Below, piece by piece: positions 4,199 through 21,114 of a stretch of 64,000 nucleotides of DNA. Source of the stretch: Flavisolibacter sp. (GTDB taxonomy: Bacteria; Bacteroidota; Bacteroidia; Chitinophagales; Chitinophagaceae); the NCBI GenBank assembly GCA_045805145.1, contig JBJMLU010000130.1, positions 5,392 to 69,391 of the forward strand. The letters run 5' to 3'. The position numbers and the translations under genes are program-made. Below the pieces are notes generated by a model. The model had not been told where the DNA came from. It saw nothing but the letters and a program-made list of their open reading frames with translations, and made no database searches. Each line of letters opens with the position of its first letter. The first letter of the stretch is position 1.

Positions 4199-4645
4199 AT
4201 GAACCCTGTTCTTAAGGCCATGGCGATTTATGTGTTTGTTTTATTGATGTTGCGCATTGTAGGTAAAAAAACGGTGGGCGAAACCACCACCTTTGATTTT
4301 ATTTTGCTGCTGATCATTGCAGAAGTAACCGAACATGCAATGGTGGGCGAAGACACCTCAGTCATAAATTGTTTTATTTTAATTGCCACGCTGGTGTGTA
4401 TGAATCTTTTGCTGACCCTGGTAAAAAACCGCTGGAAGTTTTTTGAAGATCTTACCGAGAGCGTGCCGCTGATCATTGTTCAAAATGGCAAGCTCTTAGA
4501 AAGACGGATGAAATATGCAAATATTGGTAAAGACGATATATTGGAAGCGGCACGTAAAAAACATAGCCTCGGCAAACTGGAAGAAATTGAATATGCCGTT
4601 CTTGAAAAAGATGGAAGCATATCAATCATTCCGCAAAAAACTTAG
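4199..4645 (+). CDS. DUF421 (YetF-like) membrane protein
   Basis: Three TM segments, TFDFILLLIIAE, then PLIIVQNGKLL and IEYAVLEKDGSISIIP, typical of the family. Confidence 0.9.
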   Translation: MNPVLKAMAIYVFVLLMLRIVGKKTVGETTTFDFILLLIIAEVTEHAMVGEDTSVINCFILIATLVCMNLLLTLVKNRWKFFEDLTESVPLIIVQNGKLLERRMKYANIGKDDILEAARKKHSLGKLEEIEYAVLEKDGSISIIPQKT

Positions 4646-4682: not shown

Positions 4683-7043
4683 TCACAACTCCACCTTGTT
4701 TGCCCTGCCTTTCAACATAATTTCATCTGTGGTAGCGACGAATCGTTTACCATTCAGCAGGTAGCTCTTGCCCGCAAGACCTTTAATGTGTAAAGTATAT
4801 TTCCAACCGGATGCAACAGAAGTTAAGGAATAACTGGTCGTACCTCCATTTTTTAGAAGCACAAATGAAATGGTGTTGTTGCCTATGGGCAGATCATATA
4901 TTGCTCCGTGGTCCCAACCGGTTGGGAGATGAGGTGAGATCACAATGGACTTATTGAACGCATCCGGATGAATCCCAAAGAAACGGGTGACCAGCGGAGT
5001 AGCCAATCCATAAATTGTCCAGGCCTGAACAGGACAACCATAATCGGGCATCATTTCAGAAATAGAACCCGGCAGGACCCTGCCGAACGTCTGCACAATC
5101 TTATCTACATACCACTTGGCCTGGTCTATACGATCGTAAGCACATTCGGCCATGGCCTGCACACCAGTGGAAATGGTCATCATATAACGCCGCTCCACAG
5201 CCGAAAGCCAGGGACCGTATTCACCACAATCTTCTTTGCGCACTTTGTTCAGCAAGCGAATGGCTTTGTCCCTGGGCGCTATACCTGTTTCTGCCGGTGT
5301 GCTGATGACCCAGTTTTTATTGGTAAACCATCCTCTTTCTGTTTCAGGAGGAAGAGCAGAGAATTGCCCGATCAGTTTCTCATAAAACTTCTTCTTGTCC
5401 AACAGGAGTCCGGAATCCTTTGCATCAGTCGCACCCACATACAATTGTTCCAGGGCTCCTTTGACGACAGACAAGGCCTGCTCCCGGCTTCCATAAAAAT
5501 CGCAATAGCTTCCTTCCGCCTCATCCCAAAATTGTTCATTGATCTTTTTCTGCAGGACCGATGCTTTTTGATGATAGTCCTGTTCCAATTCTTTCTCTCC
5601 AAATATTGCCGCCATCTTCGCTGTTACTTCCAGGTCCTGCTGCGTGTATACCGCCACATCAATCAGTTCGGCACTGAGTCCTTTTACTTCCATGATCCCA
5701 TAACCTTCGGGAAAGAAGTTTTTGTTTTGATCCTGTTTGGTCAGCAGCCAGTTGATGCCCTTGCGGATGTAGGGATACATTTCGCGGAGAAAGCTTGTAT
5801 CGCCTGTCCACTCGAATACCTTCCAAACCGCCAGAGCAAAATGTGGCGTCTCCTGGGCATTTCCTTTGTTGTACACGAATCCGTTCGAAGACATTTCATG
5901 AATGATGCGTCCATTCCCATTGGCTTTTTCAGAAACCTTTTTAAGGAGCCGGAGCGTGGACTTCGCCAGTTCCGGATCGCCCGATGCCACTACACCCTGT
6001 AAGGCATAGGAATTATCACAACCAAAAAGCCAGGGATATTCTATGGCCCCTGCGCCCAGAAAGCGGCCCAATCCGGGAAGCTCACTCACCAGCCATTCGG
6101 TATTCAGTTTCCCCCAGGTATAAGCCTGTTGCAGGTCCTTGTCTGGAATATCAACCCTTGCACGATGGATGATGGCTGCGTAATGTTCTTTTTTCCTGTT
6201 CAATAATTGCCTGTAGTTCTTTAAAATGTTTTCATAATTGGCGTGTGCCGTTGAAAAATCTTTATTGGAGCCAGTGATGACAAATACTGCGGTCAGCGTT
6301 TGTTGTGGCTCGATTGTCAACCGATAACTAATGGATGCGGTTTGGCCCATCCCCATGGTTTCAATAGGAGCCATGGCCTTTGTGTGATGATGGACCGCGG
6401 GTAAGGGCGATCCCAGTAAGGTGAACCAGGGATGACGTGTATCTTTTGCCACCAACATGTTTTTATCTCTCATCCAATAAACGGTATCTACAGCGTCGAT
6501 GATGTTATTTTCTTTGGAGAACCATACGGGGCTGAGATCTGATTTGATCACAAACTCTAATTGCAGCACACGCAACCGTGCAGTTGTATTTTTCAGTTGG
6601 TATTGAACCACCATGCCCTCCTTGCCCTGCGGACAAAACTGAAATCGCTGCGCTTCAATGCCGTCTAACACCGGCGCATACCTGAATCGATTACCATAGG
6701 GATAGTTGGTGAATTCACGGGCATCCTTCAACCAGGCTTCTGAGGTTCCGTCCGCATCGGTAAGCTTTAGCCAAAAGCCATCCATTAGTTTGAGGGGAGG
6801 CATCCACAATCCGCCCATTTCTCCTGGTACATGCCCACCCAGGTCAGGAAAATTTCCATCTTGTGTTCCCACCATATAAGTTCTGTCACCTGCGGTGAGA
6901 TAGGGCTTATTCCTGTTCTGTCCTTTGTTGGAAATACCAGCCATGATTTGATTCACGTACGTTTCACTGCTTTGCGCAAAGGCCTGCTGCAGCTGTAGCA
7001 GGAACGCAAGGATCATGATACCGATTTTGCCATCTGTTGCCAT
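4683..7043 (-). CDS. Secreted (alpha/alpha)6-barrel glycoside hydrolase (amylo-alpha-1,6-glucosidase / GH63-like)
   Basis: Signal peptide ending AFA-Q. YPWLFGCDNSY, GRIIHE and GSISEMMPDYG..QAW motifs. Exact GH family uncertain. Confidence 0.72.
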   Translation of the reverse strand: MATDGKIGIMILAFLLQLQQAFAQSSETYVNQIMAGISNKGQNRNKPYLTAGDRTYMVGTQDGNFPDLGGHVPGEMGGLWMPPLKLMDGFWLKLTDADGTSEAWLKDAREFTNYPYGNRFRYAPVLDGIEAQRFQFCPQGKEGMVVQYQLKNTTARLRVLQLEFVIKSDLSPVWFSKENNIIDAVDTVYWMRDKNMLVAKDTRHPWFTLLGSPLPAVHHHTKAMAPIETMGMGQTASISYRLTIEPQQTLTAVFVITGSNKDFSTAHANYENILKNYRQLLNRKKEHYAAIIHRARVDIPDKDLQQAYTWGKLNTEWLVSELPGLGRFLGAGAIEYPWLFGCDNSYALQGVVASGDPELAKSTLRLLKKVSEKANGNGRIIHEMSSNGFVYNKGNAQETPHFALAVWKVFEWTGDTSFLREMYPYIRKGINWLLTKQDQNKNFFPEGYGIMEVKGLSAELIDVAVYTQQDLEVTAKMAAIFGEKELEQDYHQKASVLQKKINEQFWDEAEGSYCDFYGSREQALSVVKGALEQLYVGATDAKDSGLLLDKKKFYEKLIGQFSALPPETERGWFTNKNWVISTPAETGIAPRDKAIRLLNKVRKEDCGEYGPWLSAVERRYMMTISTGVQAMAECAYDRIDQAKWYVDKIVQTFGRVLPGSISEMMPDYGCPVQAWTIYGLATPLVTRFFGIHPDAFNKSIVISPHLPTGWDHGAIYDLPIGNNTISFVLLKNGGTTSYSLTSVASGWKYTLHIKGLAGKSYLLNGKRFVATTDEIMLKGRANKVEL

Positions 7044-8641: not shown

Positions 8642-11600
8642 TTACCGTATCAACATTACTGTACCCCTTTCTGTTTTCAATTCTCCACCTTCCAATTGAA
8701 AACTACACAACCATATATACACATTGGAATCCTGCGTTATGCCCGATATGGTTCCATCCCATCCTCTTTGCAACTCCGTCGTTTCAAATATTTGCCTTCC
8801 CCAACGATTATAGATGCTGAAGCGATATTTGACCACACGACCAAAAAGAAGTGGCAGGAACACGTCGTTTTTATTGTCATGATTGGGCGTAAAAGCTGAT
8901 GGAATATAAAAGCCCTGCATGCAATCTTTGGGAGTTACAAGCAAACTGTCTTTACCCACGCAGCCCTTCGCGTCTGTTACCTGCAGCCAATATAGTCCCG
9001 GCTGAGAAATGGTGATGGCAGAAGCAACGCCTCCCGTGTTCCATTGATAGCTATTGAAAGGCCGCAGCGATGAAACGGTGAGCTTGTCGTAAGAACACAA
9101 TAAAGTATCAGCAGGAAGAAAATCAGATGGGACCGGAAGCACGGTGGTAATTTTCGTTGAGTCCTTTCCTTTGCAACCATGCGTGTCCGTTACTTCCACT
9201 GTATAGCTGCCCGTATCTTTTACGGTGATCTTCTGCCCTGTACTGCCATCGCTCCAGAGGTAAGAAGTATACATGCCCGCATCCAGAATGCGCGAGGTTC
9301 CTGCACAAAGCGCCTGGTCATGGTTTAACGAAACAACCGGGTTGGAAAAAACATTGACGACTCTTACCGTATCATAACTTTTACAACCCTGCGCGGTCAC
9401 TCCTATTATGGAATAGGTCCCCGTTGTCTTCACCACTAATGTTGAAGAATTGTTTCCATTGCTCCAACTGTACTGACTAAAACCTCCGCCTGGATTCAAT
9501 ACCGCACTGTCGCCACTGCAAAAACTTTTGTCTGCACCGAGATCAATGGGCGGTGAAGTATTTACATGGACCCTCACTGTATCATAGGCAAAACAACCCG
9601 GAGTTTTTTCGGCTTTAATGTAATAAACCGTATCGGTCAGAGGATTGACCACAATGTTTGCAGCAGTGGTCGAACTGATATTGTAATTATTGGTCCAGGT
9701 GTAATTTAAAAATCCCGAAGGCGCGTCTAAATGCACGGTATCCCGGTTGCATTTGCTGCGGTCGGGCCCTGCACTGAATGGAATGGGAGCATGTGCCATT
9801 ATGGAAACCGTATCGTGGTACACACCGCCACAACTATTTACTGCGGTCAGATAATAAACTCCAGGTGTCGTAACCGTATAACTTGAATCTGTTGACCCAT
9901 CCTGCCACTGGTAAGAAGCAAAACCTTTGCCCGCACGAAGCACCAGGCTGTTGCCTGGACAAATCACTGTGTCCTTTCCCAGGTCCAGCGAATTACGGAC
10001 CGGCAATACTTCTATCAATACCGAATCTTCTCTTAGTCTGCAACCCAGCAGACTGGCATGAATCCATTTTTTTCCAGCCTGGTCTATCTGGAATAAATAA
10101 CTGCTGTCACTGGTTTGTGTTACACTACGCACCCAGGTGGTATCATACACCAATGGCACCAGGCTGCCGCATTCCTTATTCTTATGAATGGATAGGGTAA
10201 CACCTGTTCCAGGACAAACAACGGCAGCACTGGCTTGCAGAGATAGGGTATCGCAATGAGAGATCACCTGGCATGCCGGATCAATCCTTGTCGTGAAATC
10301 GTGCGCCACAAAGCTTTTCGGGCGGCTCTCGCTCATTACATTTTTCTGGATGGAGTAAACACGGAGGTTGTAATTGGGTTCAAAATTGAAATACCAGATG
10401 GACGTAGAAGAATCTTTCACGCCCAGGCAAAGAGAAGCGGTATCAGAAGTATGCATCCGGTAATAATCAATACGGGCCCCGTCCAGTGCTGTTTTCGTGC
10501 TGTCGCCCATGGTCTTGATATTCAAAAACCCACCATCGGGCATTCGAAGATTGTTCGGCTCATTGGGTATGCCCTCATTGATATGAATGCGCTTGCGCTG
10601 GTGATAGATCTGGTCATTTTTAAAGAGGCTGATATAGGCATCGGCATTGTATCCCGAGAAAAAATGCAGCATGGTGAAAACTCCGGTTCCATCAGGGAAA
10701 AGACTGATTCTTGTATTGTATGAATTACCTTCATGGCGGTTTTTAAATCCGTATGCTTTTACAAAATTTAAATGCTCGTCCAGTTCAATGATACCGGCGT
10801 GATAGAGGTCTTTGGTACCGGTAAAAGCGGGGAACTCAAAACTTCCAGTGGTGGGACCGCTCATAAGATAATGTCCATTGTCTTGTTGCACTACCTGGAA
10901 GGTACCGTATAAGCGTGCTGCATAGCGGTCGCATGTTTGTACAATTGATTTTGTAAACGTAGTATCACCATCGGTTTTACGAACGCCATAGACATCGATA
11001 TAAGAATCGTTGTAATATCCATTTCCCAATAAAAACAATAAAACGTTGCCGCCATTAAATTCAATTCCAAAAGGATAATGACTATCGTAGCCCTCATAAC
11101 CCTGGCTCCAGAAGATGTGACCATCCAGGGGATCAATTTTTGTCAGCGTCGGGGGACCAGACCAGTGAGAACCGAGAAAATAGATCTCGCCGGTTGTAGG
11201 ATCTTCTTTTAGTGCTGCCAGATCAAAATAATCACCACTTCCATGGTATCCCTGCCAATACCTCGAAGCATAGGTCTTTAACCAGATGATATTCCCCTGA
11301 GCATCTGTTTTCATCAGCGCCAGGTCTTCATTACCCGAAATATCATTTTCGGTACGTCCGGCTAATAGGATGTTTCCGTCGTGCAATTCAAGGGACTCAA
11401 AAAAATTCATGAAATCAAAATCTTTATGCCCGCTGCTGTCGTATAATTTGCTCCAGATCACATTGCCCTCATCATCCGTTTTCATACACAAACCCCCGGA
11501 TATCAGCGGCGTTTTTGAATAATCGGCATATTCTCCAGATAGGATCACATGACCATCAGCGGTACGCGTCGGATCCCCCGTCCAGATGTTCACCGAATCC

Positions 11601-11950
11601 TGGTACAGAAAATCTCTCCCCGAAATCGTATAACAGATCTCATTGGTGCGGTTAGGGTGAACCGAAGATGGTTGTGTTGTTTCATGCGAATGCTGAAACC
11701 GTGCAGGAACAGCGCTTGCTCTGAGGCTTTGAAGCTTCGGCTGACCTGGAAAAAATTGCGAAGGTGGAACGTAAAACTTTTGTAAGCGAACCATGGAGTC
11801 AACAGATAAGACACGCATCGGATCAACGAAGCGATTAGCCGGGCGATTGACTGCCATTCCCGGAGATTGCGCCACTGCCACCTGAAAGAGGATACAGGTG
11901 AAGAGCAGGCAGGCAGTGAGTTGTGGTCGGATCCTGAAAGAAGAAGGCAT
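8642..11950 (-). CDS. T9SS type B cargo (gliding motility-associated / CHU_C C-terminal domain) surface protein
   Basis: Signal peptide, repeated LDLGxDxxxC Ig-like units, C-terminal IPSAFTPNHDNKNDVF..IYNRWG..GWDG..GTVMLIR. Confidence 0.9.
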   Translation of the reverse strand: MPSSFRIRPQLTACLLFTCILFQVAVAQSPGMAVNRPANRFVDPMRVLSVDSMVRLQKFYVPPSQFFPGQPKLQSLRASAVPARFQHSHETTQPSSVHPNRTNEICYTISGRDFLYQDSVNIWTGDPTRTADGHVILSGEYADYSKTPLISGGLCMKTDDEGNVIWSKLYDSSGHKDFDFMNFFESLELHDGNILLAGRTENDISGNEDLALMKTDAQGNIIWLKTYASRYWQGYHGSGDYFDLAALKEDPTTGEIYFLGSHWSGPPTLTKIDPLDGHIFWSQGYEGYDSHYPFGIEFNGGNVLLFLLGNGYYNDSYIDVYGVRKTDGDTTFTKSIVQTCDRYAARLYGTFQVVQQDNGHYLMSGPTTGSFEFPAFTGTKDLYHAGIIELDEHLNFVKAYGFKNRHEGNSYNTRISLFPDGTGVFTMLHFFSGYNADAYISLFKNDQIYHQRKRIHINEGIPNEPNNLRMPDGGFLNIKTMGDSTKTALDGARIDYYRMHTSDTASLCLGVKDSSTSIWYFNFEPNYNLRVYSIQKNVMSESRPKSFVAHDFTTRIDPACQVISHCDTLSLQASAAVVCPGTGVTLSIHKNKECGSLVPLVYDTTWVRSVTQTSDSSYLFQIDQAGKKWIHASLLGCRLREDSVLIEVLPVRNSLDLGKDTVICPGNSLVLRAGKGFASYQWQDGSTDSSYTVTTPGVYYLTAVNSCGGVYHDTVSIMAHAPIPFSAGPDRSKCNRDTVHLDAPSGFLNYTWTNNYNISSTTAANIVVNPLTDTVYYIKAEKTPGCFAYDTVRVHVNTSPPIDLGADKSFCSGDSAVLNPGGGFSQYSWSNGNNSSTLVVKTTGTYSIIGVTAQGCKSYDTVRVVNVFSNPVVSLNHDQALCAGTSRILDAGMYTSYLWSDGSTGQKITVKDTGSYTVEVTDTHGCKGKDSTKITTVLPVPSDFLPADTLLCSYDKLTVSSLRPFNSYQWNTGGVASAITISQPGLYWLQVTDAKGCVGKDSLLVTPKDCMQGFYIPSAFTPNHDNKNDVFLPLLFGRVVKYRFSIYNRWGRQIFETTELQRGWDGTISGITQDSNVYIWLCSFQLEGGELKTERGTVMLIR

Positions 11951-12176
11951 CGGAACGCAAAATAATAACTGGAGGCTGAACTACATAGCGATACGACCAG
12001 TCAATATCGGAAAAAAAGCAAAGGGCAAACGCCAAAAGGAGCTATAAAAAATAGCGGCTGTTCGTTCTCATAGCCCATCTCACCTCTCTCCTGTCATCTT
12101 TCATCCTCCCTCATCATTCCTGTCTTCGGATTTTTAAGAACATCGCTTATCTTGATAGTCCTAACTGTTGCAAACC

Positions 12177-15100
12177 ATGATCAAATATTCCGGCCTGCTT
12201 GCGATTCTAACGATTTTCGTCGGCTTCAGTGTTTTCTCTCAACCCATCATCAAAAGTTTTTCTCCCTCAGGCGGTCCGGTTGGAACCATCGTCACACTGA
12301 AAGGAAAAGGCTTTGATACGGTTGCTTCGCACAACATTATTTTCTTTGGCGCCGTTCGATCAATCGCTTCTGCCAGCACGGATTCCACCATCGTCACCGC
12401 TGTGCCTTCCGGAACTTCTTACCAACCGGTCACCGTTACAAATAATTCAGGTACGGCTTATTCTTTGCTTCCCTTTGTCGTCACATTTGCCGGTGCATCC
12501 GGTCCTTTTACTTCCAGTAGCTTTCTGCCGAAAATCGATGTAACCACCAGCTACTATCCACATGCCCTCTCCATTGCCGATTTTAATAATGATGGCAAAC
12601 CCGATGTGGTGGTGGCTAAAGGAAGTTCTGCAACCGTTTCTGTACTAACCAATACCAGCAGCAATGGCGCGATCTCCTTTGCAGCGCCCAAAGAGTTGAC
12701 CGCAGCAGGCAATAGCCACGAATGTTCCGCCACTGGTGACCTGGATGGAGATGGAAAAATTGATTTGGTTACCGCGAACACCTGGAACACCAATACCATT
12801 TCTGTTTTTCGCAACACCACCATCAACACCACCATCAGCTTTGCTTCGAAAATAGATCTGGCCACCGACAGCAGTGCCTACTCTGTCGCCATCAATGACC
12901 TCGATGGCGACGGCAAGCCTGACATCATCGTGGCCAACAATGCTTCCAACAAAATTTCTTTATACAAGAACAGGAGTACAGCGGGAAACATTTTATTTGA
13001 CAACCGCATTGATCTGTTGGCAGGCACCAATCCTTTTAGCATAGCAGTGAATGACCTGGATGGCGACGGCCTTCCTGAATTGATCTATACCACGCAAAAC
13101 ACCAGCTCTAATTTATCGGTCATGAAAAACAATTCGGTGAAGGATAGTCTTTCCTTTGATGCTCCCATTGTCCTTGCCAATTTCCCGGCGCCTTTTGTAG
13201 TAGCAGTGGGCGATCTCGATGGAGATGGTCTTCCTGATCTGGCAGCGGCTTCCGGAGGCGACCTGGTCATCGTCAAGAAAAATTTAAGCACACCGGGTAA
13301 CCTTGCGTTTTCAGGACTGCAACTATCCTATGCAACGGCCAGTTACGCAAACGGTGTTGCTATTGCCGATATAGATGGTGATGGGAAACCAGACCTCGCC
13401 GTATCCAACCGGATGTCCAATAATATTTCCCTGTTCCGCAACACAGGCTCACCCGGCTCTATTTCTTTTGAAAGCCGCGTGGATTATGCGGTGGGTGAAT
13501 TACCAATTTATCTCGCAGTGGCCGATTTGAACGGTGACCAGCGACCCGACATTATTTCCGCGAATTCTTCTTCCACCTTCATTAGCATTCTTACCAATAT
13601 TATCGGAGCGAATGTGGCTCCCACGGTTCAATCCTTCAGTCCTGCTTCTGGCGTGCAGGGAACTTCTGTTGTCATCAAAGGAACCAATTTTAACGGAACC
13701 ATTTCAGTCACATTTGGTGGCGTTCGGGCGGCTTCGTTTACTGTGAATTCAGACAGCACCATAACAGCGGTTGTTGCACAGGGAAATTCAGGAGCTGTAG
13801 CCGTTACTACGCCCACCGGTTCTGCATCGCAGCCTGGCTTCAACTTCACCGGGCCTACCATTACTTCTTTCACACCATCCACGGGCGTATCGGGAACAAC
13901 CGTTAATATTTATGGAACCAATTTTACCAATGCCAGTTCTGTAAAATTTGGAGGAACGCCTGCTGCTGCCTTTACCGTAAATGTGCCGACTTATATTACG
14001 GCCGTTGTAGGAACTGGCGCGAGTGGTGACGTATCGGTGACCACACCCAATGGTACGGCAACACTGAGTGGATTTAGTTATGGAGCGCCTGTGATTACCA
14101 GTGTTGATCCGCGCTCGGCACCAGTAGGAGCTACAGTTCTGATCCAGGGAAAAAATTTCAGTGCCACTGCCAGCGATAATATTGTTTTTTTCGGATCGGT
14201 AAAAGCCCGTGTTGACTCTGCATCGTCCAACCTGCTGAAATTAACCGTGCCCGCAGGCGCGCGGTATGGTCCAATTACGGTTACTGTTAACCGTTTGACG
14301 GCTTACTCGTCGATGTTTTTCAGCATTAGTTTTGCGGATTCCACTGCGCTCTCAGCTGGTTCATTCAGCAATGTGGGCTCGTATAGTGCGGGTAATTATC
14401 CTTCCGCTGTCACCATTTGTGATTTGAATGATGATGGCATGCCAGATCTCATGACCGCAAATGCTTTGGGCAATAGTATTTCGGTGATAAAGAATATCAG
14501 TACGGTAGGAAATATTTCCTTTCTGCAAAAGGTGGATCTCCCCGCAGGAACGGATACCAAAAAAACAGTGACCGGAGATTTGGATGGTGATGGAAAGCCC
14601 GATGTAGTAGCCGTCAATTTCAATTCCGGAAATGCCAGCACCATTTCTGTATTCCGCAATACTTCTACTGCGTCCACTATTTCCTTTGCGGCAAAAACTG
14701 ATTATGCTACCGGCAATGGAACGTTTGGACTTGCCATTGGAGATATCAACGGTGATGGCAAGCCGGATGTGGTGACCAGCAGTGGCAACTCGGGATTCTT
14801 CTCGATATTTTTAAATACAACTGCGGCTACAGGTACAATTAGTTTTGCTCCCAGGCAGGACATCATCAATTTGAATCATGCCGATAATCTGGCCCTGGCT
14901 GACATGGACGGAGATGGCAGGACCGATATCGTTCTCGCAGAAATGGCTGCCAGCGCCGTTTCTGTTTATCGGAATATCAGTTCGGGTGGCAACCTCCAGC
15001 TCGATGGTCGCACAGCTTTTGCAGTGGGAGCGGGTCCTTTCAGTGTGGAAGTAGCGGATCTGGACCAGGATGGAAAGCTGGATGTGATCGCCAGGGGTTA

Positions 15101-16373
15101 CTCCGCAATTTTTGTTTTAAAAAATAACAGCAATACAGGTGCATTGGCTTTGCAACCGGTCTATGATTTTCCTCTGAGTACCATGAATGCTTCTCTGTCT
15201 GATTTGAATGGAGATGGCAGGCCGGATATTTTATTGGGACAGTCCACCACAGGAATTATCTCGATGATGGAAAATAAAACCGTGGCTTCGGGCCCGATCG
15301 CTTTTGGCAATCACGTGGATCTGAAGCCGGGGAATTTCGACACGTTTGTAGCAGCGGGTGACCTGGATGGAGATGGAAAGCCCGAACTGACAGCAGCGAA
15401 TACTTTGTTGTACACGGTGACCATCTACAGCAACAAGAGCGGCGCGCCGCGCATTGATTCTTCTTCTGCAGCAACCATCAGATCCGGCGATACGCTTCAA
15501 CTAACAGGAGGCGATTTTACCGGAGCCAGCTCTGTAAAATTCGGGGGCACACCGGCAGCGTCGTTTAAAGTGAATGATGCCACGCACATGGAAGCCGTGG
15601 TGGGTGGTGGTGCCTCGGGGAATATTACCGTGACCACTCCAAAAGGAACCGCGGACTATCCGGGAATTAAATTCATTCCGGTGATCAAGGTGAACGGACC
15701 CAGTACTGTTTGCGGTGATGCCTCGGTGCCCCTCACTTCTTCCGCTGATGCCAACAACCAATGGTATAAAAACAATGCAATCATTGCCGGCGCGAATGCC
15801 AAAACCTATAATGTTGTAACAACAGGCAACTATACGGTAAGGACCACGAGCAATGGTGTAACCACCACGTCTGTGACGGGTGTTGACATTACGGTTACTT
15901 CTGTTCCTACGCCTTCCATAACTGTGAATGGCAGTTCATTGGTGTCCAGTGCCGCTTCGGGTAATCAATGGTTCCTCAATGGCGCGGCCATCCAGGGTGC
16001 CACGGCACAAACCTATCAGCCCACGCAATCGGGAGATTATACGGTTCAAGCATCGGTGAATGGTTGCCTCAGTGCGACTTCACCCGCGCGCAGCTTTGTG
16101 ATCACTGCACTGATCGATCTTCCCAATGGGCAGTTCATTCATCTCTATCCCAACCCTGTCGTAGATCAACTGGTGATCCGGTATCAATTGAACAATACAA
16201 ATGTGATCACCCTAGAAATTTTTGACGGCAATGGAAGGTGGATCAAAACAGTGAAGGGATTGCACTCGGGTGATGTAGTTCACACAGAAGAACTATCTGC
16301 AGGGATGTACCTGATAAAAATCGAATCGAAAGGACATTCATTTGGAACGATGAAGATGATTAAAATAGAGTAA
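12177..16373 (+). CDS. FG-GAP/VCBS repeat and IPT/TIG domain protein with T9SS type A C-terminal domain
   Basis: Many DLDGDGKPD repeats, several PTITSFTP..G..V.I.G.NF IPT domains, C-terminal HLYPNPV..LSAGMYLIKI. Confidence 0.92.
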   Translation: MIKYSGLLAILTIFVGFSVFSQPIIKSFSPSGGPVGTIVTLKGKGFDTVASHNIIFFGAVRSIASASTDSTIVTAVPSGTSYQPVTVTNNSGTAYSLLPFVVTFAGASGPFTSSSFLPKIDVTTSYYPHALSIADFNNDGKPDVVVAKGSSATVSVLTNTSSNGAISFAAPKELTAAGNSHECSATGDLDGDGKIDLVTANTWNTNTISVFRNTTINTTISFASKIDLATDSSAYSVAINDLDGDGKPDIIVANNASNKISLYKNRSTAGNILFDNRIDLLAGTNPFSIAVNDLDGDGLPELIYTTQNTSSNLSVMKNNSVKDSLSFDAPIVLANFPAPFVVAVGDLDGDGLPDLAAASGGDLVIVKKNLSTPGNLAFSGLQLSYATASYANGVAIADIDGDGKPDLAVSNRMSNNISLFRNTGSPGSISFESRVDYAVGELPIYLAVADLNGDQRPDIISANSSSTFISILTNIIGANVAPTVQSFSPASGVQGTSVVIKGTNFNGTISVTFGGVRAASFTVNSDSTITAVVAQGNSGAVAVTTPTGSASQPGFNFTGPTITSFTPSTGVSGTTVNIYGTNFTNASSVKFGGTPAAAFTVNVPTYITAVVGTGASGDVSVTTPNGTATLSGFSYGAPVITSVDPRSAPVGATVLIQGKNFSATASDNIVFFGSVKARVDSASSNLLKLTVPAGARYGPITVTVNRLTAYSSMFFSISFADSTALSAGSFSNVGSYSAGNYPSAVTICDLNDDGMPDLMTANALGNSISVIKNISTVGNISFLQKVDLPAGTDTKKTVTGDLDGDGKPDVVAVNFNSGNASTISVFRNTSTASTISFAAKTDYATGNGTFGLAIGDINGDGKPDVVTSSGNSGFFSIFLNTTAATGTISFAPRQDIINLNHADNLALADMDGDGRTDIVLAEMAASAVSVYRNISSGGNLQLDGRTAFAVGAGPFSVEVADLDQDGKLDVIARGYSAIFVLKNNSNTGALALQPVYDFPLSTMNASLSDLNGDGRPDILLGQSTTGIISMMENKTVASGPIAFGNHVDLKPGNFDTFVAAGDLDGDGKPELTAANTLLYTVTIYSNKSGAPRIDSSSAATIRSGDTLQLTGGDFTGASSVKFGGTPAASFKVNDATHMEAVVGGGASGNITVTTPKGTADYPGIKFIPVIKVNGPSTVCGDASVPLTSSADANNQWYKNNAIIAGANAKTYNVVTTGNYTVRTTSNGVTTTSVTGVDITVTSVPTPSITVNGSSLVSSAASGNQWFLNGAAIQGATAQTYQPTQSGDYTVQASVNGCLSATSPARSFVITALIDLPNGQFIHLYPNPVVDQLVIRYQLNNTNVITLEIFDGNGRWIKTVKGLHSGDVVHTEELSAGMYLIKIESKGHSFGTMKMIKIE

Positions 16374-18059: not shown

Positions 18060-18175
18060 AACCGTGGTCGGGTGAAGTGATTCATCTAGAAAATCTTCCT
18101 GCGGGTGTGTACATGATAAAGATGGATGTAAGGGCCGGTCGTTTGAAACGGGTGAAGATGATCAAGGTGGGGTAA
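18056..18175 (+). pseudogene. Orphan fragment of a T9SS type A C-terminal domain
   Basis: Hand translation MKPWSGEVIHLENLPAGVYMIKMDVRAGRLKRVKMIKVG* aligns with the end of 12177-16373 (HSGDVVHTEELSAGMYLIKIESKGHSFGTMKMIKIE*). Confidence 0.65.
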
Positions 18176-18348: not shown

Positions 18349-18406
18349 ATGACAGAACCCTGAACAGCTGGCGAGAGACCGCATTGACCAACAATTAATT
18401 GACTAA
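18349..18406 (+). pseudogene. Putative 5' remnant of a type I restriction subunit (HsdR)
   Basis: ATG, one extra base, then QNPEQLARDRIDQQLID*. Resembles the NPEQxARDxID N-terminus of EcoAI/EcoEI-type HsdR as I recall it. Very short, not verified by search. Confidence 0.5.
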
Positions 18407-18519
18407 AGCAAAGTATTTTAAAAAAGGCTTTTGAAGGAATATTGGTAAAGAATGAAAAATAAAGTAAATTTTAAAATTGGTTTTATTCAGCAACATACTC
18501 ATCAAACAAGAATTAAGTA

Positions 18520-19428
18520 ATGACCGGACAACTACCATCAAAAGAGCAAAGAAAATATTTCTACACAATTATTTTTTTGATGTTAATTGCGATATTCTTA
18601 ATACGACATATGCTTATGCCTTACTTAAGTGGTCAAAAAATAGAATTGAATAACGAAGTTTTATATAAAATTTTAGATGACCTTTTTACAAGTATATTAG
18701 TAACTATTGGCTTGGGAATTTTTTTGTTTTGGCTAACGCCAAAGAATAAGGCGAATGCACAAATCAAAATATTGCAACCTATAGAAATAGGTTCAACAAT
18801 GACGAAAGCCAGGCTGGAAACTGAAAAATGGTGGTTCAATGGTGGTAGTGGAAGATATACAAGATCGCAAACTCTTCCATATCTGGCTAATTTGGCTCGA
18901 CAAAGAGGCAAATCAATCGAGGTCGTTATACAAATAATGAATCCAAATAATCAAAAAACATGTAGACGTTATGCAGAATATAGAAATAGTTTAAAGTCCG
19001 GTATGCGAAACAAGAAATCAGAAAAGAGTGTTCAGATCGATTTGCTATCTACCATAGTCGCTGCATATATGTGGAGATACGAGCAGCCCTTGCTCGATAT
19101 TACATTAGGTTTAAAAGATAGTTTCTCATTGTTTCGTACGGATATATCATCTACTACTGCCCTTATTACTAAGGAAGATCCAATTGAGCCTGCACTATTG
19201 TATGAAAATGGAACCTTTTTTTATGATGCATATTGCCAAGATCTAAAACAAAGTTTAAACCAGGTCACCAGATTAGATATGTCTATTTCATTTGTTGGAG
19301 TGAATGAAATTGCAGTCTCGAATACAAAGGAACTTTTACAGCATTTAGGATTTAGTGATTTAGTAAATGACTCAGAAATTGGTGATATAATTTCTAAGGC
19401 CAAGAGTAACGAGAATCCATATGGATAG
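18520..19428 (+). CDS. Hypothetical protein with two N-terminal TM helices and a cytoplasmic alpha/beta domain
   Basis: Hydrophobic segments YFYTIIFLMLIAIFLI and FTSILVTIGLGIFLFWL, then WWFNGGSGRYTRSQTLP..VVIQIMNPNN. AT-rich. Overlaps the next gene by 8 nt. Confidence 0.8.
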   Translation: MTGQLPSKEQRKYFYTIIFLMLIAIFLIRHMLMPYLSGQKIELNNEVLYKILDDLFTSILVTIGLGIFLFWLTPKNKANAQIKILQPIEIGSTMTKARLETEKWWFNGGSGRYTRSQTLPYLANLARQRGKSIEVVIQIMNPNNQKTCRRYAEYRNSLKSGMRNKKSEKSVQIDLLSTIVAAYMWRYEQPLLDITLGLKDSFSLFRTDISSTTALITKEDPIEPALLYENGTFFYDAYCQDLKQSLNQVTRLDMSISFVGVNEIAVSNTKELLQHLGFSDLVNDSEIGDIISKAKSNENPYG

Positions 19429-20059
19429 ATGCTTGAATAACTTATATAAAAGTTTAGAAGCTGAAAGACCTGTACAAGAAGTTAAGAGAAATATCTTGTC
19501 ATGTTTTCCCGATTTTAAAATCATTGCCAAATATCATCCTCTTGGTTTTTATGCTTTTACTCTTGGAAAATTAGATGATATCGTAACAGTAAGACTGCAC
19601 GTATGGCCTGTTGAGGCAAAAGTCCAAAATGAAAACTTGCTAATTCATAATCATGTTTTCAATTTTAAAAGTTTGGTTTTGTTTGGTGCAATTACTAACA
19701 AAACTTATACGGTTCAAGAATCAAATGAAGGCGATGGCAATTTATTTAAAGTTGAGTACTTCGAAAAAGGTTCTCGGTTAACAAAGTTGGCAGGTAATTA
19801 CCGATTGTTACCCCCTGTCATTACTCAAGTCAGCGAAGGACAATATTATTCAGTTATGTCAACCGAATTTCACGAGTCATTAAATACTGGTAAACGATTT
19901 TCGGTTACTATTTTGTATACTAAATCCGTTTCCAACAGTACACCTCTTGTTTTTGGCAAGAATTTCAAAGAGGACTCTATTGAATTTGAAAGAAACGAAT
20001 TGCCGGTTGATGAATTTGATTCAATAAAAAATAAAGTAGTAGAAGTCCTTCAGACATAA
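19421..20059 (+). CDS. Cupin-fold, probably metal-binding, hypothetical protein
   Basis: HPLGF..RLHVW..IHNHVFNFKSLVLFG..FHES gives an HxH motif plus a distal His, as in cysteine-dioxygenase-like cupins. AT-rich. Confidence 0.78.
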   Translation: MDRCLNNLYKSLEAERPVQEVKRNILSCFPDFKIIAKYHPLGFYAFTLGKLDDIVTVRLHVWPVEAKVQNENLLIHNHVFNFKSLVLFGAITNKTYTVQESNEGDGNLFKVEYFEKGSRLTKLAGNYRLLPPVITQVSEGQYYSVMSTEFHESLNTGKRFSVTILYTKSVSNSTPLVFGKNFKEDSIEFERNELPVDEFDSIKNKVVEVLQT

Positions 20060-20111
20060 ATTATTAAATCTATGCCTAGTTTGAAATTTATACTTTTATT
20101 TAAACTTAAAA

Positions 20112-20183
20112 ATGTCTACCTATCAAATCATATCCAAAGTCCGGGCTTTCCGCAATACCCTTCGTGATGCGAATGAAAAATAA
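20112..20183 (+). pseudogene. Putative 5' remnant of a type I methyltransferase (HsdM)
   Basis: MSTYQIISKVRAFRNTLRDANEK*. Two T>C changes (TGG>CGG, TGC>CGC) would convert the IISKVWxFCNTLRD N-terminus I recall for EcoEI-type HsdM into this sequence. Confidence 0.6.
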
Positions 20184-20225
20184 ATCAGAAAAATTATTTA
20201 TGCAAGTCTGCAACGCTCAAGGCTA

Positions 20226-21114
20226 CTAAGTCAAACCAAATTGATACCTATGTCTTTCTAGATAAACCTGATTATACTCGCTTAACTTTCTTATTTGTTC
20301 ATCTCCTCTAATTCCGATCTTATTAAATGCTGTCATTTCTATTGAATCATGCAGCAAGATTTTACCCTTTTGATCAAAGCTTATAAGATGCTTATCAAAT
20401 AATGCGTCAAAATGTGGCGACAAGAGAATACCATTATGCACGTCCAGCCTTTCGTCACTGGTAGCGCCAGACCAGGGAACAATATGAGAGGCAATCAAAA
20501 CCTCCAGCTTATTAAAATCTGTAACCGCACACTTGTATTCCCATCGGTGAATAATGCTTTTCCGGTAAGCACCTTGTCCCACGCGAGAAGTAACCAAGCC
20601 TAATCGCTCCGTGATCGAAGGTTTCTTGTAATTCAAATATTCAGATGGGCCTTCTTCTACTTGTGTAAGTTCTACTGCAGAAGGAATATTGATTACGTGC
20701 ACGCCCAATCTTGTAAAAAAGAATTTGATGGCTTTTTCGAAGATTTCTATTTGCATCTGGTGCTTCGAAGTAGCCCATGTCATAGAACTGTAATTCTGTA
20801 ATAAATTTTACATACCCCTTCGATTGGTACTCGAACAGGAAAACTCTTTTGCCACTGTTGATGTGTTCCCGAAGCGCCAGGTTTCCCTTGGTAAACTTCA
20901 TATCTCCTTCTCGGCCTTCACCTGTATAACTAAATACATCGGGATTTTCCCAACCATCCTGATAACCATATTGCGTTCCGGTTTTTCCTGAAAAAATAAA
21001 TATGTAAGGAAACTGTGCACTGGGTGCAATTCCGCCCTGTCTTGTGCCTCCATACTGGTCATGGATATCCGACCTTTTGTAAACTTGTGTTGGTATGAAG
21101 GGCCACTGAGGCAT
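20226..21114 (-). pseudogene. SRA-like/HNH modification-dependent (type IV) restriction endonuclease, split by a 1-nt frameshift
   Basis: ORF 20641-21114 has YGGTRQGGI..YTGEGREGDMKFTKGN (ScoMcrA-type SRA-like). ORF 20226-20783 has RVGQGAYR..CAVT..LIASHIVPW..NGILLSPHFDALFD (HNH). Deleting one A of the A5 run (plus-strand T5 at 20733-20737) fuses them into 295 aa. Confidence 0.8.

Follow-up and report, generated by a model that had tools for sequence, protein, structure and literature searches.

Analysis of a 64,000-nucleotide stretch of the Flavisolibacter sp. contig JBJMLU010000130.1 (hereafter the window) revealed two overlapping genes, A and B, that together form a candidate mobile conflict module. 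We read the pair, tentatively, as an antiphage system of the abortive-infection (Abi) type, a reading that we consider quite possible though short of probable. Its defence function is something we infer from several features taken together: strict pairing, the minimal unit shared between loci, co-evolution of the two proteins, selection, rarity, low G+C content (GC), the character of the neighbouring genes, the predicted folds, and the lack of a match to any known system. The two genes, as read from their open reading frames (ORFs), are as follows.

18520 to 19428, plus strand: gene A, a 302-amino-acid (aa) membrane protein with two N-terminal transmembrane (TM) helices.
19421 to 20059, plus strand: gene B, a 212-aa soluble cupin.

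The genes overlap by 8 bp, with the ATG of B lying within the last codons of A (…AAT CCA TAT GGA TAG), and the pair spans about 1.55 kb. GC was 0.34 at 18–20 kb (34%–38% over 18–21 kb), compared with 0.44–0.50 on either side; for the pair itself it was 33.3%, against 44.6% for the remaining window. An initial annotation of this region had described two intact, overlapping, AT-rich genes, and the reading frames, their overlap and their composition all bear this out.

Homologous pairs were compared across 25 independent loci, counted after removal of duplicates and including the window. Besides a first group of 12 loci and those of distant B relatives, they covered three Pseudomonadota genomes, two plasmids, Nonomuraea and five further metagenomic contigs. 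Gene A was located directly upstream of gene B on the same strand in every one of them, mostly with an identical 8-bp overlap, so the adjacency of homologues that had been named beforehand as a check was confirmed without exception. In DNA and translated comparisons of the window island with a subset of the loci, no genes beyond A and B were shared. DNA homology between the window and the locus of the closest relative (L005) extends from approximately 18501 to 20019. Pairwise distances among A proteins were strongly correlated with those among B proteins (Mantel r = 0.815; none of 5000 permutations reached this value). Ratios of nonsynonymous to synonymous substitution (dN/dS) for B were approximately 0.2–0.3, and B is under purifying selection; A showed dN of 0.19–0.41 with saturated dS. 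Judged by gene order and sequence comparison, A and B form an obligate mobile pair that is complete in itself, and the geometry of the overlap would allow translational coupling.

An A-type partner was missing only beside the two weakest B-like matches, found in genomes G125 and G652. At locus L021 of G125 (10404–12237), a B-like cupin that is only distantly related (E = 6e-22 against the family profile) lies behind a 373-aa protein with two TM helices. We considered this protein as a possible homologue of A and rejected it, as the hhalign probability was 0.5%. No partner was seen beside the B-like cupin of G652. The single case of G125 hints at a constant cupin that may be combined with exchangeable membrane partners.

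Decayed copies of the pair were also found. In locus L014, gene A carries a single in-frame TGA (4421–4423), as it does in L015 and L016, and B is intact; this lineage is present on 11 contigs. Recoding of TGA was considered for L014, but a neighbouring ORF of more than 1057 aa needs no TGA read-through, so the TGA in A is a nonsense mutation. In L006, the C-terminal half of B does not match the family.

The pair is rare and scattered. We counted genomes carrying the pair or a member of the B family, which gave the following numbers.

Own genome and 40 relatives, 24 of them in the same genus: 1 of 41, the own genome only.
Bacteroidota species genomes: 2 of 401, the own genome and the G125 variant, which lacks A.
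Pseudomonadota: 5 of 401, four besides the centre genome.
Bacillota: 1 of 401, the centre genome only.

Overall prevalence was approximately 0.4% of sampled species genomes. Pairs were nonetheless spread over four phyla (Bacteroidota, Pseudomonadota, Bacillota and Actinomycetota) and two plasmids. Bacteroidota hosts included a Bacteroidetes metagenome-assembled genome (MAG), a Roseivirgaceae MAG, Pedobacter, Mucilaginibacter and Algibacter; among the other hosts were Halobacillus, Cytobacillus, an Ectothiorhodospiraceae MAG, Alkanindiges, Nonomuraea, and the carriers of the Methylobacterium and Rhodococcus plasmids. Of 17 loci, 14 showed a drop in GC from the flanks to the pair, and in 13 the difference was at least 3 percentage points (up to 21). 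Such a composition is the mark of an accessory cassette that moves horizontally.

The B protein belongs to a large family. A word-index search returned B alone when B was the query and only 12 proteins when the family profile was used; this reflects a limit of sensitivity, since an exhaustive search recovered 983 cluster representatives at E ≤ 1e-3, 253 of them at E ≤ 1e-10. Nearly all of the best 150 listed are approximately 200–230 aa long. Across 20 diverse members, H39, F43, H60, H76, H78, S84 and G89 were invariant, and W62, Y143 and H151 were 95% conserved. The motifs HPLGF, RLHVW and HNH…H151, which had been picked out in the window sequence, are present in B and correspond to invariant columns of the family. 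In the window protein, H151 is followed by N155, giving a second cupin motif of the form H(x)3N.

The AlphaFold model of B (pLDDT 96.6, pTM 0.91) has a cupin barrel preceded by two N-terminal helices and followed by a helix at the C-terminus. Foldseek comparison with the Protein Data Bank (PDB) returned 183 matches at E ≤ 1e-3, and the top 50 listed were essentially all cupins. At the head stood thiol dioxygenases with a three-histidine (3-His) metal site (8vni, 4qm9, 3eqe, ADO, PCO4 and MDO), with other cupins following; the enzymes matched were mercaptosuccinate dioxygenase, the Bacillus subtilis cysteine dioxygenase YubC, human ADO, plant cysteine oxidases, 3-mercaptopropionate dioxygenase and ergothioneine dioxygenase. 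Protein B has no glutamate three to four residues past H78 (H-N-H-V-F-N-F-K-S). The combination of HxH and the motif-2 histidine without the motif-1 glutamate therefore points to a 3-His arrangement formed by H76, H78 and H151. The modelled fold and its structural matches thus agree with the proposal that B is a metal-binding cupin, and place it in the cupin superfamily, closest to thiol dioxygenases.

This relationship was not visible to Pfam profiles. No cupin model exceeded the threshold for the window protein, and Cupin_2 was matched by only 2 of 75 family members (best E = 0.002). The cysteine dioxygenase (CDO) family model CDO_I (PF05995) and the PCO_ADO model (PF07847) gave no match at E ≤ 1 for the window protein or at E ≤ 0.1 for the 75 members.

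Protein A combines a membrane anchor with a soluble domain. Hydropathy identified two TM segments (residues 14–32 and 55–73), and the AlphaFold model (pLDDT 89, pTM 0.73) has a helical hairpin (8–37 and 45–72), an alpha/beta domain (83–250) and a small helical C-terminus; the two N-terminal TM helices attributed to A are thus upheld by both approaches. Positive charges precede the first TM segment and follow the second, which argues for a hairpin with its N-terminus inside and for a cytoplasmic body.

A word-indexed collection contained 34 homologues of A, all approximately 300 aa long and all annotated as hypothetical. The blocks kept among them were W-x-F-x-G-G-S-G-R-Y-T-R-x-x-T-(L/I)-P, F-R-x-D-(L/I)-S, I-T-K-E-D-P-x-E-P-A, and a C-terminal N-P-Y-(G/A). 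When 18 more diverse sequences from four phyla were aligned, only G111, R115, R206 and T217 were invariant, and G108, P120, Y151, T178 and D208 were 94% conserved. The P-Y-(G/A) ending was kept in loci in which the genes do not overlap (L011, L024 and L050), which argues for constraint at the protein level. B may dock onto this tail or use it as a substrate.

Foldseek comparison of the alpha/beta domain of A returned TrmBL2 (E = 2.3e-5), the Escherichia coli phosphatidylserine synthase PssA (2.3e-4) and SauUSI (3.4e-4), with further matches to BJ-TSA-9, PLD2, BfiI and Zucchini, and the two best matches in the viral structure library BFVD were phospholipase D (PLD)-domain proteins. TM-scores of these matches were modest (0.3–0.4), so we take the PLD fold class as established but not the exact relative. 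A cytoplasmic domain with a PLD/TrmB-like sensor fold had been named beforehand as a finding that would support a defence role, and this is the fold that the structural comparisons recovered.

The domain is degenerate. The catalytic motif of the PLD superfamily, HxK(x)4D, was not found in A; I216-T217-K218 stands at the corresponding place, with I216 invariant in the close set and K218 replaced by R or V in distant members. No conserved histidine was present anywhere in A among the 34 or the 18 aligned sequences. Since the histidine of HxK is replaced and the lysine is not universal, the domain is a degenerate form of the PLD-like type, comparable to that of the TrmB family, and a role in binding or switching is more plausible for it than phosphodiesterase activity. 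The N-terminal winged helix of the TrmB family was likewise absent: the N-terminus of A consists of the two TM helices, and A had no Pfam helix-turn-helix match.

Neither protein could be assigned to a described family. A and B matched no Pfam, NCBIfam or PADLOC-DB v2.0.0 family (PADLOC at E ≤ 1), and the Methylobacterium pair had no match in PADLOC-DB v2.0.0 at E ≤ 0.01. Profiles of the A and B families gave no useful match among PDB sequences and no cupin for B; the sole profile match, COMMD3, was dismissed as chance (E = 0.12). A full-text literature search for cupins in antiphage defence found no described system. The statement in the initial annotation that the pair matches no named system is therefore borne out against PADLOC v2, Pfam and NCBIfam. 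As far as these profile searches reach, the pair is undescribed and its products represent two protein families without a Pfam, NCBIfam or PADLOC model.

If the pair acts in abortive infection, the cytoplasmic protein B, a 3-His metal cupin akin to thiol dioxygenases, would be the enzymatic or sensing component and A its membrane partner, with B controlling A or A controlling B. The disabled PLD/TrmB-like domain of A has a pocket rich in arginine and threonine (R115, R206, T217 and the Gly-rich loop 108–111), whose probable binding partner is an anionic ligand or B itself. This domain would govern the two-helix hairpin, such that activation perturbs the membrane and the infected cell is stopped. 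The division of sensing and killing between the partners, the nature of the ligand, any part played by O2 and metal, and the part played by the C-terminal tail are elements of this scheme that we infer. The initial annotation had proposed that the cupin may make a small molecule sensed by A. A more specific version, which we regard as improbable, is that B is an O2- and metal-dependent enzyme that on infection oxidises or otherwise converts a thiol, a nucleotide or a peptide, possibly the P-Y-G tail of A, and that the pocket of A reads the product or the altered tail and opens or oligomerises the hairpin. If true, immune signalling would here use a chemistry new to it, based on a dioxygenase-type enzyme, with swappable two-TM effectors.

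With respect to the ligand of the pocket, we note two loci with a nucleotide-metabolism gene directly upstream of A on the same strand. In L009 this is a PF06189 5'-nucleotidase (1065–2006), separated from A by 25 nt, and in L053 a thymidylate-kinase-like (Tmk) gene (5756–6433), separated by 3 nt. These genes may be a lead to the ligand of the arginine-rich pocket.

We examined the neighbourhoods of the 25 loci for genes of defence or mobility, counting clear defence genes within 9 kb in flanks that were only partly annotated. Clear defence genes were found in nine loci, and the count rises to approximately 13 of the 25 when weaker hints are included. As to the expectation that homologues would lie near defence genes, defence and mobile-element genes were frequent neighbours, but the association was only moderate, with nine clear cases among partly annotated flanks. 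By our own estimate, it is clearly above what we would expect for an ordinary gene, yet moderate. The neighbourhoods were as follows.

Window: the SRA–HNH nuclease directly downstream of the pair.
L001/L005: Macro-ADP-ribosylglycohydrolase, KptA, Pnkp/Hen1 RNA repair, WYL-WCX and N6_Mtase-HATPase_c.
L017: ResIII with SduA_C (Shedu), and an integrase.
JGI contig: LmuB_C (Lamassu).
L010 (Mucilaginibacter), L012 (Pedobacter jejuensis) and L022 (Methylobacterium plasmid): a cluster of a Dam methyltransferase, a metallophosphoesterase (Metallophos) with a winged helix-turn-helix (wHTH), an ORC/CDC6-like ATPase and CARF6, at 9631–14379 in L010, at 1728–6626 in L022 and at 9473–9784 in L012, where it is truncated by IS21.
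L057, 1–6846, a densely packed defence island upstream of the pair: KAP NTPase, QatB, a 454-aa ORF and TatD (Qat-like), putAbiC, DUF4172-Fic, then three small unknown ORFs.
L058: a 1242-aa YobI-type ATPase.
Four loci with weaker hints: PIN_12; a Schlafen AlbA_2 fragment; a trypsin-like protease with LmuA- and HamA-type matches; and a group of AAA_33, DUF3644 and DUF7002.
Loci without suggestive genes: Tc/RHS toxins; NadAB with erythromycin esterase; aconitase with glyoxalase; GNAT acetyltransferase; YkuD with DoxX; and DUF2202 with Tll0287.

PADLOC scans of uncharacterised neighbouring ORFs returned no matches. In the defence island of the closest relative (L005), two such ORFs, at 9689–10519 (276 aa, 145 bp downstream of the pair) and at 10994–11836 (280 aa), had no Pfam or PADLOC match and no counterpart in the window.

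Genes of mobile elements were also present around the pair. In one locus the pair is bordered by an excisionase, MobC, a relaxase and a type IV coupling protein (T4CP) at one end and by an integrase at the opposite end, the arrangement of an integrative mobilisable element, and another adjoins a replication module of the DnaD/DnaB type. Both plasmids carry a small serine recombinase of approximately 200 aa about 400 bp downstream of the pair and on the same strand (L022, 9808–10410; L023, 9724–10326). Such small serine recombinases are described as markers of antiphage cassettes in a 2025 preprint (PMC12632615).

Several observations weigh against an antiphage role. Clear defence genes accompany only nine of the 25 loci, and approximately eight loci lie among housekeeping or unrelated genes. 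Classical defence-island screens reportedly used a neighbourhood criterion of about 65%, and 9 of 25 falls below this value. An enzymatic killing activity cannot be read from the sequence of A, whose PLD-like domain is without HKD and whose K218 varies among distant members. No homologue of A or B was found among 50,697 phage records, so nothing points to superinfection exclusion by prophages.

A toxin–antitoxin or addiction module that is not dedicated to sensing phage would account for some of the same evidence. Under this explanation, A is a membrane toxin neutralised by B, or the reverse, and the pair stabilises plasmids and islands. The overlap and co-evolution of the genes fit such a module, as do a cassette that moves alone, the two plasmid copies next to ParA, BrnTA and recombinase genes, the copy within an integrative mobilisable element, and the decayed copies in which one partner is broken (the TGA in A in L014–L016 and the C-terminal half of B in L006). 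However, proteins of 302 and 212 aa are large for a pair of this kind, and B keeps a full metal-enzyme site with five conserved histidines, and a simple antitoxin would have no use for such a site. In the L014 lineage, B remains intact on 11 contigs with A broken, which is odd for a mere antitoxin, and many chromosomal copies lie outside mobile elements. We consider an addiction module unlikely, though a serious candidate.

The structural matches also raise the idea that the pair serves a niche metabolic or stress function, with A as a membrane-tethered lipid- or phosphate-binding protein and B as a thiol-dioxygenase-like enzyme that, for example, detoxifies or oxidises a thiol or another small molecule. 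The best structural matches of B are true metabolic thiol dioxygenases and A resembles phosphatidylserine synthase and PLD lipid enzymes, but by sequence B falls outside the CDO and PCO/ADO Pfam families, and A is without the HKD residues on which PLD chemistry depends. Some loci do lie among metabolic genes (sarcosine oxidase; aconitase and glyoxalase; DoxX), and the 5'-nucleotidase and Tmk-like kinase genes stand directly upstream in two; across the 25 loci, however, no metabolic neighbour, transporter or regulator is conserved and the flanks differ everywhere. A prevalence of approximately 0.4%, jumps between phyla and AT-rich composition also sit poorly with a metabolic role, which we judge to be quite unlikely.

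The cluster of Dam, Metallophos(wHTH), ORC/CDC6-like and CARF6 genes appears to be a separate defence system. PADLOC named only its CARF6 and methyltransferase parts (CARF6 component at 1.9e-108 and 1.8e-42), and a MADS label was rejected because the ORC/CDC6-like protein gives only weak P-loop matches to mad8 and mad3. That A and B are an accessory or effector of this cluster is very improbable: the same four genes do stand beside the pair in L010, L012 (truncated by IS21) and L022, in two phyla and in two relative orientations, but 22 of the 25 loci, the window among them, lack the cluster, the pair moves without it, and the orientation varies (tandem in one locus, divergent in another), so co-transcription of pair and cluster is not conserved.

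Returning to the window, the surroundings of the pair contain the following features.

18062 to 18175, plus strand: remnant of a C-terminal sorting domain of the type IX secretion system (T9SS) (…LPAGVYMIKM…KMIKVG, then stop), with a weak Por_Secre_tail match (E = 0.056).
18349 to 18406, plus strand: 'HsdR-like' micro-frame of 17 residues, its identity unsupported.
20113 to 20183, plus strand: 'HsdM-like' micro-frame of 23 residues (codons), its identity unsupported.
20226 to 21114, minus strand: SRA–HNH type IV (modification-dependent) restriction nuclease (Pfam SAD_SRA and HNH_2; PADLOC HNH at 2.4e-23 and mREase_IV).

The nuclease gene is split over two frames, with SRA at 20641–21114 and HNH at 20226–20783, and the frame change lies near A5 and T6 runs inside the frame overlap at 20641–20783. 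The two minus-strand frames and their Pfam and PADLOC matches agree with the frameshifted SRA–HNH nuclease that had been reported next to the pair. The frame change may reflect a genuine pseudogene, phase variation or an error of assembly.

The initial annotation had also taken the short frames on either side of the pair for HsdR and HsdM N-termini, and the whole for cargo inserted between hsdR and hsdM in the scar of a type I restriction–modification system. Neither micro-frame had a Pfam match even at E ≤ 10. In alignments with 35 long frames, drawn from 12 hsdM loci in relatives, they scored no better than shuffled sequences (188 of 200 shuffles scored equal or higher for the 'HsdR-like' frame and 58 of 200 for the 'HsdM-like' frame) and did not align at N-termini. 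In a DNA search of 40 relatives, short matches to the micro-frames fell in unrelated frames, as expected by chance. These identities are not sustained, and we rejected the hsdR–cargo–hsdM framing: no recognisable HsdR or HsdM coding remnant was found on either side, and the left border shows the T9SS remnant instead.

This remnant sits just past the stop of a 462-aa ORF, at the left border of the island, with no gene before it, and it resembles the C-terminus of a 1401-aa protein encoded at 12168–16373. A T9SS tail without a preceding gene suggests that a T9SS cargo gene was cut short at the point where the AT-rich island begins; the remnant marks an insertion or deletion border and lies outside the system. 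Three copies of a 16-nt AT-rich word, AATGAAAAATAAAGTA (88%–100% identical), at 18451–18466, 20023–20038 and 20172–20187, bracket the cassette. They are probably chance occurrences in AT-rich DNA, but could be marks of the cassette borders. No tRNA genes were found in the window, and upstream of A neither a sigma-70 promoter and terminator scan nor a search for the Bacteroidota -7 motif TAnnTTTG gave anything above chance.

Should the pair prove to be antiphage, the immune repertoire would gain two families that have no Pfam, NCBIfam or PADLOC model. A 3-His cupin of the thiol-dioxygenase type would be brought into bacterial defence, raising the prospect of oxygen- or metal-dependent immune sensing, and A would be a compact case of a catalytically dead PLD/TrmB-like domain serving as a membrane-tethered switch. 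Even as a toxin–antitoxin or stress module, strict pairing across four phyla makes A and B a clean, small experimental target.

B shares with thiol dioxygenases the cupin barrel, the HxH of motif 1, the histidine of motif 2 and the 3-His site (Foldseek E = 3e-6 to 2e-4, probability 1.0), and its layout of a hydrophobic strand ending in W, a loop and IHxH resembles that of the CDO family. In contrast to these enzymes, B has no sequence-level match in Pfam or the PDB and TM-scores of only approximately 0.45, carries two extra invariant histidines (H39 and H60) and N- and C-terminal helices, and behaves as a mobile accessory gene obligately paired with a membrane protein.

Residues ~83–250 of A have the same alpha/beta fold as the PLD superfamily and the C-terminal domain of TrmB (PDB matches at E = 2e-5 to 1e-3), and like TrmB-type domains A is without the catalytic histidine of HKD. 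However, A is a single domain on an N-terminal two-helix hairpin, rather than being joined to the wHTH of TrmB or to nuclease or helicase modules. It also has motifs of its own (GGSGRYTR, FRxD and the C-terminal PY(G/A)), with ITKED where HxK would stand.

At the level of the whole cassette, the closest parallels are two-gene Abi systems with small TM effectors, among which are CBASS with Cap15 and other two-TM effectors, Pycsar with PycTM, Kiwa, and some membrane components of retrons and Zorya. With these the pair has in common a soluble enzyme or sensor alongside a protein with N-terminal TM helices, and compact, overlapping, mobile genes that occur in defence islands. Unlike them, the cassette contains no cyclase, CARF/SAVED domain, reverse transcriptase or ATPase and has no PADLOC match, and its soluble partner is a cupin, a fold that our literature search did not find in any described antiphage system.

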